Counted from the whole stretch's first letter, positions 7,155-28,351 are shown. The stretch is 63,856 nt of DNA, filler included, from Neolecta irregularis DAH-3 (GCA_001929475.1; 6 parts of 6 records of this genome joined end to end with filler, not necessarily neighbours in it), one strand, 5' to 3'. Translations and numbers: made by a program. Notes: a model not told the origin generated them from the letters alone.

Positions 7155-10100
7155 ATGGACGAAATTGCGGCGGCTCTGTATTCCGCACGCGCAGACGGAC
7201 CAGCGCAGGAACTCGCAGAACACAGCAGGCAGATCGCTGCAGGTTGCATAATTATGGCATTTTACCTGATGCGACAGAAATTTCAGCTGGAAAAAATACT
7301 TTGTTTCAGCTGGTAGAGCGCATTGGTTGCGAATGTTTGGCTGCCTCAGATATTTCAATTAAAGCGCGCGGTACTTCTTTTTTGGGGGGTTATGCGAGAC
7401 TGAAATTGCAGGAGTTTTGCTGCTCGGTGCAGTTTTGAATCGTTTGCCTCAAACATTGCTCGTTCCTTCGCAGATTTCTGCTGTAGTGCAATTTCTGTGT
7501 GCATATCTAGACGATGTGCGAGAAAATAAAGACTCTGACATGCACCCCGCGCTATATTCGCTGTGTTCGATATCGCAGATGTCTGCACTCACCGCCGCAG
7601 ATGTATCGCTGATCTGCAATTCGTATGTTGTCGTTATAGCTCGACTAATACGATAAAGCATCTTTGCAATTGGCGATTTGCACCACCAGCCGCAGCGCGT
7701 TCGTTTCCTCGTTTATTCACTGCTCCACCATATTCTCGCCAATCATCGCAAAGGCATAGCATCTGCATTTGAAGCTCATCTTTCAGGAGCATTTTCAACC
7801 GGCGGCGAGTTTATTTCAGGATTCGCTGCAATCGTCGATGGCGAAAAGGATCCGCGAAATCTCATGCTCGCCTTTTCCATCTTGAAAGTCATTTTGGCAG
7901 AATTTGATATTTCAAAACATCTCACCGTACTTTTTTTTCCAATTCATCTAATCAAGAGTCGCTTTTCGACATCGTAGTCTGCTATTTTCCCATCACTTTT
8001 CGTCCTCCCCCAGACAATCCATACGGTATAACCGCCAATGATCTCAAACAACGCCTCAGGTATTCTCAACTGCTGTCTTTCTGATATCAGAGAATGTATT
8101 GCTGCAACTCCCCTTTTTGCTCCGGAAGCAATTCCCATGCTGCTCGACAAACTAAACTCGCCAACCTTGTCAGCAAAGGTATTCACCCCCTACTTTCTTA
8201 CCATAACTCATAGATCGATGTACTCGAGACTCTTGCTCTCTGCTGCAAGATATTTGGCCCCCGTGAAATTGTCGTTTTTATCACCCAAATCTGGGACTCT
8301 GTCAAATTCGAAATACTCCAACCAGGAGAAGAACAACTCGTCTCTAACGCACTCTTAGTCATTATCTCCGCCATCAAAACTCTCTCCCGCGGTCTCGACA
8401 ATCCTCTTCCAAATACTCCTCTCTCAAGATTCCTCAAAATCGTCTTTCACGAATGCCATTCTCAAATCACAGATTCAAAGGCCTTGCGAGCTGCTGGACG
8501 TATACTCGGCTCAACCTCACAAGCATCTCGACCTTCAAACATTTCAACTCTGCAGGAAATGCTTCCGTTCGTCTTGCAGTCCCTGAAAGAAACCGAACAA
8601 GTTTCAAACCAGATTGCATTACTAGACATTTGCTACGAAATCCTTTTCGGTTCTGCACTCCTCTATCCTCGCAGCTTGATCCGTGTCTCTGCACAGAAAG
8701 AGGACGAAATGATGACTGGAGACGACAATATATTTGAACGAAATGACGATATATTCGAAATGACACAGAAAGACGACATCCTAGGCATCCTCGCACAATT
8801 CCTCTCAAGTAGTGATTGTCATGTAAAAACAGTTTCCTTGCGCTGCTTATCAAAACTCTGTGATATCAGCGGCCTGCTCGATGATTCTCAAGTATCCCAG
8901 ATTATCCAATACTTTAATACAATTGCCCTGCAAGACGAAAATCTCGATCTGAGGTACCTCTTAACATTTTCTTGAATAACATCTCCAGTCAGGAAGCTTT
9001 ACTATCCCTCGCAAATATCTCAGTCTATAGAAGCCAACTCATCATTGAAAGCTCTTTTCCAGAATTCTTGTCCCGTCTTCCCTTACTGCCCACAAACGAC
9101 GAATATAAAAGAGTATTGAGCGCTCTGAGTCAACTTTCAAAATCTGCACCTATAATAGAATGCCTATTTATTCGTCTGACAGCAAAAGTGGATGAGCTCG
9201 TTAGGAACGGCCTAGGAAATTACCTCACTGCAGTCTTCGCTACAATTCTTGCTGTCGTGCAACAATGGTATGAATCCAATCCATCCATGAGAATTCCCCT
9301 TGCAGACCGGTTGTTGGCGCAAATCATGACAATATCTACTCAGCACACCTCGTCATATATTTTGCAACCCCAAATTCTCAAGATTGCCGCACAAATCGTC
9401 AATATAATCATCAGAAACGACAATGAGACTCTTCAGTTGAAACATGCTGTAAACCTTTTCTCACTATTTGTTACATACGACAAATCAATATGGTCAAGTG
9501 AATCAATAGAATTTGCTCCCATGACCCCCGACGCTTCATTGGATCAGATAAAAACACTTTCTATCTTTATCTATGGCTTTGCCGCTCTCAAACGCAGTGC
9601 AAGTTTACTTTTTAATCCTAAATTAACGACTAGACACCCCTTCCTGAAAACATTAATCTACAGTTATTCGCTTCAAATCTTGTGGCTAGAGTCGCTGATC
9701 CTATCCCTGATGAATCAACAGTCCAGTTCAATTTAATATTAGCTTGTCTTTTCAATAAATATTTCAGCGACGACGAAATCAATTGTATTATACGCCCAGA
9801 AATTGAAAAATTAAAAACAATGTTGGATTCTACAGAGATTGCTTCTAGAGCATTACATTTATTACTCAACGTAATTTTCTTTTTCTCTACGCTGACTGCA
9901 GATTGCAAAACCATTGCTGTTGAGGACACACAAGACCGCGTTCGAAATAATCGAGATAGTCATCGCGAGATTGGCAGATTCTATCATGGGCCACCAAGCT
10001 GCAGCTGGATTTGCCTTACTTTCTCAAGATCACGAAATTCTGAATCCTACAAACCACGCAGTCATTCGCATCCTACACAAACAGCGATTCTTTGTATTTT

Positions 10101-10657
10101 GTCTTCCTCGATTGTTCGACGGGTTTAAAGCTGCTCAAGCTGGTGAGATTCCTTGTTGAATCATTTCATTAGAATCAGGTATCAAACCGAATTACCTCAT
10201 TGCATTATCGAACTTGCTCGCGAACACCCCTCAAAAGATATATTCCTCCGATTTACCAGAGATTCTACCCTTGTTGCTTGAAAGTCTTACCCTAAATCAT
10301 TCAAATGTAAAGGCGTCAACAATTGATACATTATACGTCACAATATTCAAGAGTCCTGCTCTTATCTCTGAGCATGTTGCTACAATTGTTCCACAACTAT
10401 TAAAGGCCATTCAACTGTCTGAAATCAACACGATGGTACTATTGCCTGAAACTCGTCTGACGTACTAGAACGTGCGGCTCGCCGCTCTTAAATGTTTGTC
10501 TATCATTCCTGGGAGTATCCGGTACGAATTGATACACCCGTTCAAAGATCAAGTCGTTCGTGGGTTACTCGGGTCACTCGACGACCCACTAAGGATCGTG
10601 CGAAAAGAAGCTGTTGACTGTAGACATAAATGGATCAACGCCTCTGGACTTTTGTGA
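7155..10657 (+). CDS. MMS19: MMS19/Met18 cytosolic Fe-S assembly targeting factor (HEAT repeats), ~11 introns
   Basis: DGEKDPRNLMLAF, CYFPITFRPPPDNPYGIT, LDDPLRIVRKEAVDCR. Confidence 0.94.
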
Positions 10658-10688
10658 ATAAAAAAGTGATATAGGAGAAATATCTTTT

Positions 10689-25816: not shown

Positions 25817-27605
25817 CTACTCGCACATCAACACCATTTTTGCTTCCCCGGAATCAGAATCGATCCATTCAAACCCTTTGTTTTCGACAACCTGCAGTAT
25901 TAAATAGATATTATGGGCTGGTATACGATAACTGCCCATGCAAACACCTCTTCCGTCAACTCTGATCCAAAAACCTCGGGATGCCGTTCCGCAAACTCGG
26001 CTCGGACAGACTCAAACATTTCTCCCACAACATGGCCATCGGCCCATTGCAATGCAGTTTCCCAGTAACGGTCAATCATCCTGCTCGTTTCATCCAGATG
26101 AGGCCAGTACAATTTCTGATAGACGAGCCACATGTAAAGTCTGACTTCTGGCTCCGTGAATAGACCATTGATGGCATTTTTCACCGAATCATTGGCGTAC
26201 CATGCATTTTCCGGGGTCACAGTAATGCAATTGAGCGCTTCGCCAAAGGAAACTTGCAAATTATCACTGCTGTTTGTAGCAGAGCGAACTGCATCCAAGC
26301 GTAACTTTGCTGTTTCGTCCAGCGCTTTCCCAAGAATTGAGGCTTGACCGTCTCGGTACATTTTAATCCACCTCATCCGCTGTGAAGACGATTCCACGAG
26401 CGTAAAGTCGTGGCTGAGCATGGTGGTGACTTTCAAGACCAAAGCTTTTTCGAGGTATTTGAGCATGTTTAATTCATTACGAAGGCCACCGGGTAGAGTT
26501 GCGATATGATCCGTTTCCATCACAGACAATTGAATTCTTTCAAGTTCTTCCTTGTTCGCCACGAGGATGCGCCAATACATCTTCAAACCCTCAGGAAACG
26601 GTATCTCGTGTGTGAGATACTACACCAATGAGCTTGTCTGGAAAAGAAAAACTTTTGCCTGAATTTTCATCCACTTTTGAGCGTTTAATGCTAGATATTT
26701 GTTCTTTTCAATTGTTGCTTCGTCGAGTGGATCGTCAGTAATACTCGGGGATGCAAGTATCACTGAATCAAAAGCATTATTCTCCACACAAAATCCATAG
26801 CCCATCAACACTGCCAAGTCAATTCTGTTAGAAAGAAGACATGCATTCTTCATTTCCCTTTGGACCGTAATTATTAAACACTTGGACGTTGTGTTCGAGA
26901 TCCTTTCCGGCCAGTAGACACACTTTACTCTTTTGAAAGTCTGTGAACCACCAAATTGGTGACTTATGGCGATGGTTGAGGAGATCGACGACTGGTAACA
27001 AGGCAGGTAGACATTCGGACTTTTCAAGATTCGACTCGCCCTCTGTCTTGCGGTTCTTCAATATTGTATCTGGAAAAGAACGAGATGTAAATACTGTAGC
27101 GGACCAGAGATAGTCTGCCCACGTGAAGTGCCTATCCTGAGAAAGTAGTTCTAAAGCTGTATCGAATTCGGCTTTCCACAGATTTTGTCTTTTTGAAATT
27201 TCAGCGTGTATATTTGTGCCTCGAAGGGCGTCTTGTTCTTGCTGGTCAAAGAACAGAGGTGTATCAAAATGTGATGGGAGGATATTGATATATGGCGCCC
27301 ACTTTGAATTGGGACCCTTGAGTCTCTCAGAGACGAGAAATGTACAGAGAAGAACATGTGCATCGAGATCAGACGATACGATAGAGTCTGGCAGATTTTT
27401 GCGGGCTGTTTCAATTGTTATAGCGAGATCAAAGGGACATGAGATGAGTTGATGTTTTTCGGGGATAGGAGCAACTGCAAAGGCGGTGATTCCATTCGGG
27501 CCCCTAAATTTGAGCGTATCAGAGACATTGGATATACTGCTCAAAGCGCAGATGGGGCGATATAACCGCCCTGTGGGATGCTGCCCAAGAAAGAAGCGAG
27601 TCCAT
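25817..27605 (-). CDS. SET-domain protein-lysine methyltransferase (Efm1/Rkm/Set10-like)
   Basis: [52 protein letters not shown]. Confidence 0.9.
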
Positions 27606-27777
27606 GATGGTTGATGTGAAAGACGTTTATTCGCAGAAAAATTCAGAGTCTCAAATGCACAAAAAGAAATGCCGTCGAGATCTAGTCTAGCAAGAAAAGA
27701 CGAGTTCACAGGAATGGCAATGGATTCATTATACAAATCTTGGTCTTTGACTCCCGCCACCCATGCCACTATACAGT

Positions 27778-28351
27778 CTAAATGTCATCTAGAGAATCAA
27801 AATAGCACAAAAACAGACATACCAATTTCGCCAACATCGTCGCCAAATTCGAAATTGGCATCTGCTTCTTCTTCATTGCCAAAGGTGTCGCCTTCGTTGA
27901 TTTTAGCAGAATCTGGGAGTTCACCGTATGCTTTGAGGCTTCGAGCTTCGTCTGGAGTGTATTTCAGTAAAACATCTGCTTTTTCGTCTTCGAATTCTCT
28001 GAGTGAGAGCAGGACAATATCGCCCTGATTGATCCAGACCTGGAGAGTCAGTAATTGAATAGCAGCTCAAGTGCTTTTTTGCGCATTTTACCACGGATAT
28101 GGGCAAGACGAGTAACACCGTCAAAGCAAGCAGCAGTTACTCTTCCGTTTCCTAGCATTTTTAGGACCTGTGCGTATTCTGGAGGTGAGAAACAATATTC
28201 AAAAGGAGATTTATGCCTTGGCCGTCTTCTTTAAAGACAAGTTCGCGCTTTTGATCTTCTGCTTCGTTTTTTCCTCGTCGCCTGTTTTTACCTGGATATT
28301 TAACAGATGTTGAAAGGATGAAATACCTCCTTTTCCCTTGTTCTTGGGCAT
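27778..28351 (-). CDS. TIF11: Translation initiation factor eIF1A
   Basis: [54 protein letters not shown]; 4 introns, two GC-AG. Confidence 0.97.

Follow-up and report, generated by a model that had tools for sequence, protein, structure and literature searches.

Non-GT introns and their host genes

The stretch of DNA analyzed here (63,856 nt, referred to below as the window) originates from Neolecta irregularis DAH-3 (GCA_001929475.1) and consists of six parts of this genome joined end to end with filler. It is dense in fungal genes (e.g., STE2, CHS5, CFEM, and housekeeping genes), has a G+C content of 40.5–47.6%, and shows an intron density of ~2.5 per kb of coding sequence, Neolecta being intron-rich. 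Our subject is a set of introns in this window that do not start with GT, namely six GC-AG introns distributed over TIF11 (eIF1A), a SET-domain gene, ATP4, EMC3, and MMS19, and a single GG-AG intron in ADE4 (Table 1). The six GC-AG introns had been proposed in an initial annotation of this DNA, and all of them were found in the sequence where it had placed them, starting with GC and ending with AG at 6/6 sites (lengths 33–40 nt). Excision of any of the six leaves an open frame over the junction, whereas retention yields a stop or a frameshift, and the conserved reading frame is restored by removal in all six cases.

Table 1. Non-GT introns, uncounted candidates, and host genes in the window (a slash in a donor sequence marks the exon-intron boundary)
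Feature	Position	Strand	Structure	Basis
GC-AG intron, MMS19	9599..9633	+	35 nt, AGT/GCAAGT, phase 0	predictor choice and profile gain
GC-AG intron, EMC3	11533..11565	-	33 nt, CAG/GCAAGG, phase 1	homology and profile
GC-AG intron, ATP4	19224..19263	-	40 nt, GAT/GCATGA, phase 2	homologue N-termini and lengths
GC-AG intron, SET-domain gene	26811..26844	-	34 nt, AAT/GCATGT, phase 1	homologue motif
GC-AG intron, TIF11/eIF1A	28040..28074	-	35 nt, AAA/GCACTT, phase 0	X2 contig and eIF-1a profile
GC-AG intron, TIF11/eIF1A	28179..28216	-	38 nt, AAG/GCATAA, phase 1	X2 contig
GG-AG intron, ADE4/purF	43682..43716	+	35 nt, CAG/GGACAA...TTTAG, phase 0	X2 contig and purF profile
Possible seventh GC-AG intron, SET gene (uncounted)	26620..26658	-	39 nt, CAG/GCAAAAGT	
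Candidate GC-AG intron, Lon-like copy (uncounted)	33574..33608	+	35 nt, AAG/GCAGGC, CTAAC branch	predictor choice
MMS19 gene	7155..10657	+		MMS19_N and MMS19_C profile coordinates continue across exons; P0121 99% identical
EMC3 gene	10689..11596	-	4 introns: GC 11565-11533; GT 11405-11371, 11095-11061, 10898-10865	
ATP4 gene	18512..19387	-	4 introns: GT 19350-19313, GC 19263-19224, two more GT	
TIF11/eIF1A gene	27778..28351	-	4 introns in order GT, GC, GC, GT	

Gene structures were derived with a self-trained exon/intron predictor, which in a GT-only run, counted over coding sequences no shorter than 300 nt, returned 110 introns whose predicted lengths peaked at 35–38 nt; when GC donors were admitted under a -6 bit penalty, the predictor picked four of the six previously noted GC sites unaided. 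A total of 131 predicted exons were translated by reference and then scanned against Pfam, and profile coordinates continued from exon to exon over ~21 junctions, which validates the general intron model and provides a high-confidence set. The curated census holds 103 introns, obtained from 114 raw predictor introns by removing 13 named calls and all predicted introns longer than 50 nt and by adding nine introns by hand. This total is approximate (later checks point to one or two more changes), the census is liable to miss short first exons, and its GT set includes some false calls of the self-trained predictor. Contigs from two runs, X1 and X2, were compared with positions 24781–44780; the X1 contigs are DNA-like, while X2 is labelled 'DNA?' but behaves like a transcriptome, and this kind of evidence reveals presence but cannot reveal absence.

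Evidence for the individual introns

It is certain that three of the seven non-GT introns have contig support and that four rest on homology. Indeed, the claim of the initial annotation that GC donors are needed to preserve frame and conserved motifs holds for TIF11 by way of an X2 contig and for SET, EMC3, ATP4, and MMS19 by way of homology. In TIF11, X2 record 10 (494 nt, depth 1241) omits 27789–27822 (GT-AG) as well as both GC introns, making exact excision visible at 2/6 GC sites, both in this gene. These junctions read GC-AG once one or two ambiguous bases are placed; the second gap, at 28039/40–28073/74, becomes GC..AG when its placement is shifted by 1. The eIF-1a Pfam profile spans the second GC junction (28074–28040), its positions 4–38 and 39–62 falling on either side, and X1 record 1 (25130–29605) is colinear with 0 differences and keeps the TIF11 GC introns. 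At the three GC sites compared, the DNA-like X1 contigs agree on GC.

The third contig-supported intron lies in ADE4, beyond the range given by the initial annotation; an X2 contig omits 35 nt there and none of the four possible placements of the gap starts with GT or GC. Positions 1–28 and 29–61 of the purF profile on the flanking exons fix the junction as given in Table 1, X1 record 8 (43170–44780) is colinear over the gene with 0 differences, and the catalytic N-terminus (MCGI...) is encoded only with the GG donor. A contig-supported GG donor implies that the relaxation at +2 reaches beyond C. The same gene also has a 148-nt GT-AG intron (43438–43585) just before the ATG at 43586, far above the usual 37 nt.

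In the SET-domain gene, removal of the GC intron restores a conserved motif that is gap-free in 17/17 aligned homologues, drawn from 885 matches among representative proteins; if the intron is retained, a stop results. A PDB search with two SET exons gave no match, and the Pfam scan gave none for the SET exons, for the small MMS19 exons, or for 9458–9598 alone. Transcriptome-like coverage of this gene is provided by X2 record 9 (depth 100), colinear over 26659–27501, in which two SET introns are retained (GT 27094–27056 and GC 26844–26811). The apparent start of the gene, ATG 27605 (27440–27605, minus strand), requires a 34-nt GT-AG intron, CA/GTATATCC...TTTAG, which the predictor missed. A possible seventh GC-AG intron of this gene (26620–26658) was not counted; the colinear block of X2 record 9 stops at 26659, and a rival in-frame GT donor with a similar score lies 6 nt downstream, at 26652.

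For EMC3, the GC model aligns with 13/13 homologues from other species, and exon 2 corresponds to positions 9–41 of the EMC3_TMCO1 profile. For MMS19, extending the exon through 9598 yields a match of 58.5 bits to MMS19_C (profile 1–168) vs. 36.8 bits (profile 1–108) when it stops at 9457; the 47 residues before the GC donor thus add 21.7 bits and lengthen the matched part of the profile from 108 to 168 positions. No in-frame GT-AG alternative to the GC intron exists in either of these two genes. The least secure of the six is the GC intron of ATP4, which joins exons 1–2 (MAALRI...AARP...) to the conserved protein body. The resulting three-exon model encodes 240 aa with an N-terminus resembling that of homologues of 240–247 aa (best match Protomyces, 61%), and none of the alternative donors that preserve the conserved residues is GT either. 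Translation from the internal ATG 19261, a rival start, would give 224 aa and lack the conserved N-terminus.

Both public gene models examined are wrong (2/2) because the GC donor was avoided, so that conserved sequence is lost or garbled. In the public MMS19 protein (P0121), the donor chosen is a GT at 9458, so that 9458–9598 is lost, while the public EMC3 protein (P0272, 100% identical) uses a GT donor at 11579, leaving exon 2 out of frame and unlike any homologue. No Neolecta protein was found for ATP4 among the proteins of at least 227 aa that were searched, and the public model of this gene may be shorter. Surveys built on the public Neolecta annotation therefore miss these introns and misread conserved genes of a reference species for early ascomycetes.

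None of the seven non-GT introns (0/7) carries U12-type motifs, i.e., the donor ATATCC or GTATCC and the branch CCTTAAC quoted as consensus in PMC3033335. Two more GC introns had been assigned by the initial annotation to a Lon pseudogene; one of them is plausible (33574–33608), and the second could not be placed. The Lon-like frames (33226–35365, plus strand) are broken over several frames, and contigs of both X1 and X2 are ~93% identical to the region with many differences at 33676–35146, indicating a second, expressed copy elsewhere; the X2 contig from this copy lacks a stretch at the candidate intron. A minus-strand gene (32016–33656) overlaps the upstream part of the Lon-like region. Among other candidates, a GG-AG intron in the NAC gene (25481–25446) was rejected, as the GT donor at 25484 (GTTGGA) follows the profile coordinates. 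Predictor-only non-GT candidates at 8523–8555, 18168–18207, 7543–7507, 29627–29659, 29681–29722, 30041–30004, and 30194–30228 were left uncounted for want of support, several of them being antisense, in-frame within a conserved exon, or located in a high-depth repeat at 29.5–30.8 kb. Possible in-frame non-GT alternatives also lie at 7246, 49114, and 58832.

Other features of the window include two regions (29450–30783 and 38121–38787) where contig depth is very high in both runs, reaching 26,642 in X1, and where joints are odd; these are probably repeated elements. A tRNA gene (600–687, minus strand; 55 bits) is the sole Rfam match in the window. In a carnosine N-methyltransferase-like gene, a predicted 75-nt intron (31454–31528, plus strand) may instead comprise a 12-nt micro-exon flanked by introns of 33 and 30 nt. 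Blocks of N at 24681–24780, 49378–49477, 54045–54144, 59903–60002, and 62081–62180 follow a pattern of 44 N, 12 bases, and 44 N. Since the window is made of several contigs joined end to end, neighbourhood across these blocks is meaningless.

Frequency, donor profile, and competing explanations

The curated census comprises 96 GT, six GC, and one GG donor in this one window, i.e., a GC-AG share of 6/103 or 5.8% (95% interval 2.2–12.2%). The estimate of the initial annotation, six among roughly 100 or more introns, is thereby sustained, and the share lies above published fungal values of ~1–1.85%. Fungi as a whole are reported to have 98.7% GT-AG introns (PMC7072748), the GC-AG share over 61 species is given as 1.3% with Chlorella third highest at 7.7% (PMC3033335), and a manually curated annotation of Ganoderma lingzhi contains 1.85% GC-AG and 0.022% GG-AG introns (PMC11590231). 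Six or more GC introns would arise with a binomial probability of 0.0006 if the baseline were 1%, of 0.0024 if it were 1.3%, and of 0.0125 if it were 1.85%; the proper baseline for comparison may be nearer 1.85% than 1%. A literature search yielded no paper on Neolecta together with GC-AG and nothing specific on Neolecta together with splicing, and the main text of the Neolecta genome paper does not contain 'intron', 'splice', 'GC-AG', or 'transcriptome', although its supplementary files may hold such data.

All donors in this window are weak. Outside the GT itself, the 96 GT introns carry 0.64 bit of information at +3, 0.29 at +4, 0.04 at +5, and 0.20 at +6 (A at +3 in 69, T at +4 in 51, G at +5 in 29, and T at +6 in 48), and the same weak profile is seen in the 77 GT introns of genes with family matches. 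The 21 homology-checked GT introns include donors such as GTTTGG, GTGGAT, and GTTGGA; the last of these, in NAC/EGD2 (25446–25484, minus strand), is very weak and shows that little beyond GT is required here. Intron length, in turn, is tightly confined (30–49 nt, median 37, sd 3.5).

GC donors elsewhere have been described with a strong compensating consensus, AG/GCAAGT. The observation of the initial annotation that most GC donors in this DNA lack it is literally true, with AG/GCAAGT at none of the six and GCAAGT at one. Nevertheless, the seven non-GT donors are not weaker than their GT neighbours; scored on the donor profile of their own genome, they are average or better (percentiles 39–95; Mann-Whitney p 0.19). 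What they share, in 7/7 cases, is A at +3 combined with a yTvAy motif that places its A 7–9 nt from the 3' end, whereas A at +3 with a motif A at 6–10 nt from the 3' end is found in 36/96 GT introns (Fisher p 0.0016) and both features in 30/77 of the better-supported GT subset (p 0.0023). This pattern fits a reliance on the branch site.

We regard it as established that the sites exist, that they are either spliced or needed by the protein, that donors here have a weak profile, and that the features described above occur together. On balance, we lean toward the view that these are genuine U2-type introns starting with GC, and in one case with GG, in a genome where T at +2 is less strictly required than in most fungi. 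The setting is an intron-rich, early-diverging ascomycete whose introns are very short and uniform (~37 nt) and whose donors, apart from G at +1, T at +2, and A at +3, are barely informative. In such a setting, C, and rarely G, could be tolerated at +2 given A at +3, standard length, and a yTrAy branch motif ~7–9 nt before the 3' AG. As +4 to +6 contribute so little, having C at +2 would be less costly and would be offset by A at +3 and the well-placed branch. We infer both this mechanism and its validity across the whole genome, and the relaxed-donor reading, which rests on one window, is a plausible one. The proposal of the initial annotation that 5' splice-site recognition is relaxed, with reliance on intron length and branch point, is partly upheld: it agrees with the weak donors, the tight length distribution, the GG donor, and the co-occurrence with the branch motif. 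The weak consensus ascribed to the GC donors, by contrast, is a trait of all donors here. An Rfam scan limited to the window found no snRNA genes in it.

A number of points weigh against relaxed recognition at +2. The material is a single 64-kb window, selected for its unusual look, within which GC sites make up 6/62 introns before 28.4 kb vs. 0/41 after it (Fisher p 0.079), and against the best-curated fungal baseline (1.85%) the p value is only 0.0125. Contigs support two of the six GC introns, the other four resting on homology, and in the sole X2 contig covering the SET GC site the intron is still present, together with the adjacent GT intron. X1 is possibly the source sample of the assembly, in which case its agreement on GC is not independent. 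False GT calls lower the motif rates of the GT set, so that the contrast of 7/7 with 36/96 is inflated. Furthermore, weak donors are a published pattern for intron-rich species (PMC2483917) and are expected in any such species, so that no special change of the spliceosome is needed.

Several of these points would also follow if the six GC-AG introns were real but formed a local cluster brought out by the choice of window, with a genome-wide share of 1–2% and nothing special at +2, an explanation that we treat as possible, though rather unlikely. Apart from the uneven distribution along the window and the limited significance at the 1.85% baseline, it is favored by the lower end of the 95% interval of 6/103, at 2.2%, and by the very many windows scanned, among which some chance clusters are to be expected. 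It fits less well with the total of 7/103 non-GT donors (p 0.003–0.013 even against Ganoderma rates of 1.85% and 2.44%), with the position of the GG-AG intron, of a class making up 0.022% in Ganoderma, in the other half of the window, and with the presence of two GC introns in one four-intron gene.

The retained SET intron of X2 record 9, combined with the stop or frameshift caused by retention of any of the six GC introns, might alternatively suggest that these genes are regulated by intron retention and that inefficient GC donors are preserved for this purpose. We consider this improbable, as the same record also retains the neighbouring GT intron and the retention is therefore not GC-specific. 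The neighbouring TIF11 contig, unlike X2 record 9, is fully spliced, including both GC sites at a depth of 1241, and the affected genes have no common function.

It is very improbable that the introns were mis-modelled and that splicing starts from GT donors close by, as the public annotation has it. Such donors are indeed chosen in P0121 (9458) and P0272 (11579), and in-frame GT alternatives exist for SET (8) and for the TIF11 introns at 28216–28179 (3) and 28074–28040 (11). Both TIF11 junctions are, however, settled by contigs, all eight SET alternatives destroy the motif that is gap-free in 17/17 homologues, the frame of EMC3 exon 2 in P0272 matches no homologue, and P0121 omits the 47 residues worth 21.7 bits on MMS19_C. 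Reading the C at +2 as an error of the assembly, or as a rare allele, with T as the true base is scarcely credible: nothing in its favor was found, X1 records 1 and 8 show 0 differences (weak support if X1 is the assembly source), X2 record 9, from a separate run, has the same GC at the SET donor, and six or seven independent errors of a like kind are unlikely.

A broader form of the relaxed-donor reading holds that the constraint at +2 is mostly lost genome-wide, with at least 5% GC introns, a small share of GG or GA, a working donor of G-N-A, and recognition via the ~37 nt span and a branch-site/3' end unit. No fungus, and no genome of ordinary composition, would have preceded Neolecta in having GC-AG-rich introns, and U1, U6, Prp8, or a protein associated with U1 would be expected to be altered. 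In our view this extension is speculative and somewhat doubtful.

Comparison with known systems

The closest known counterparts are fungal U2-type GC-AG introns, with which the introns described here share the GC donor, the AG acceptor, a yTrAy branch, and their occurrence in ordinary genes; GC-AG is the commonest non-canonical class in fungi, the curated Ganoderma lingzhi set being the example at hand (PMC11590231). Unlike these, the Neolecta introns reach a share of 5.8% in this window, have GCAAGT at only one of six donors, are 33–40 nt long, and cause prediction that omits GC donors to mis-model both public Neolecta proteins examined.

Tolerance at +2 has a parallel in the GA-AG donors of Oikopleura dioica and Eurytemora affinis, where, as described in PMC7072748, this position likewise accepts a base other than T while neighbouring positions are conserved, with A downstream. 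In contrast to Neolecta, these are animals that use A at +2, whereas Neolecta uses C plus one G, the sole non-C exception. In length (~35 nt) and narrow spread, the Neolecta introns resemble those of Encephalitozoon cuniculi (35.8 nt; PMC2483917); reduced genomes of this kind are, however, described there as intron-poor with a strong donor and branch consensus, while Neolecta is intron-rich with weak donors.

A GC-AG use well above the 1.3% average is also known from algae, with shares of 39.6% in Aureococcus anophagefferens, 22.2% in Micromonas pusilla, and 7.7% in Chlorella sp. (PMC3033335). According to the same source, the 5' end is canonical in the putative U1 snRNAs found for Aureococcus and the two Micromonas species, and the cause of GC-AG abundance is an enigma. 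The share in Neolecta is lower than in these algae and comes from only 103 introns, and the base composition differs, Aureococcus and M. pusilla having ~66–70% G+C vs. 40.5–47.6% in the Neolecta window. Composition thus cannot explain the GC-AG share observed here, the published correlate (high G+C) being absent. Should the rate apply to the whole genome, a G+C-rich composition would be no prerequisite for frequent GC donors, and Neolecta would provide a second, independent case, next to the algae, for tracing the cause of GC-AG abundance.

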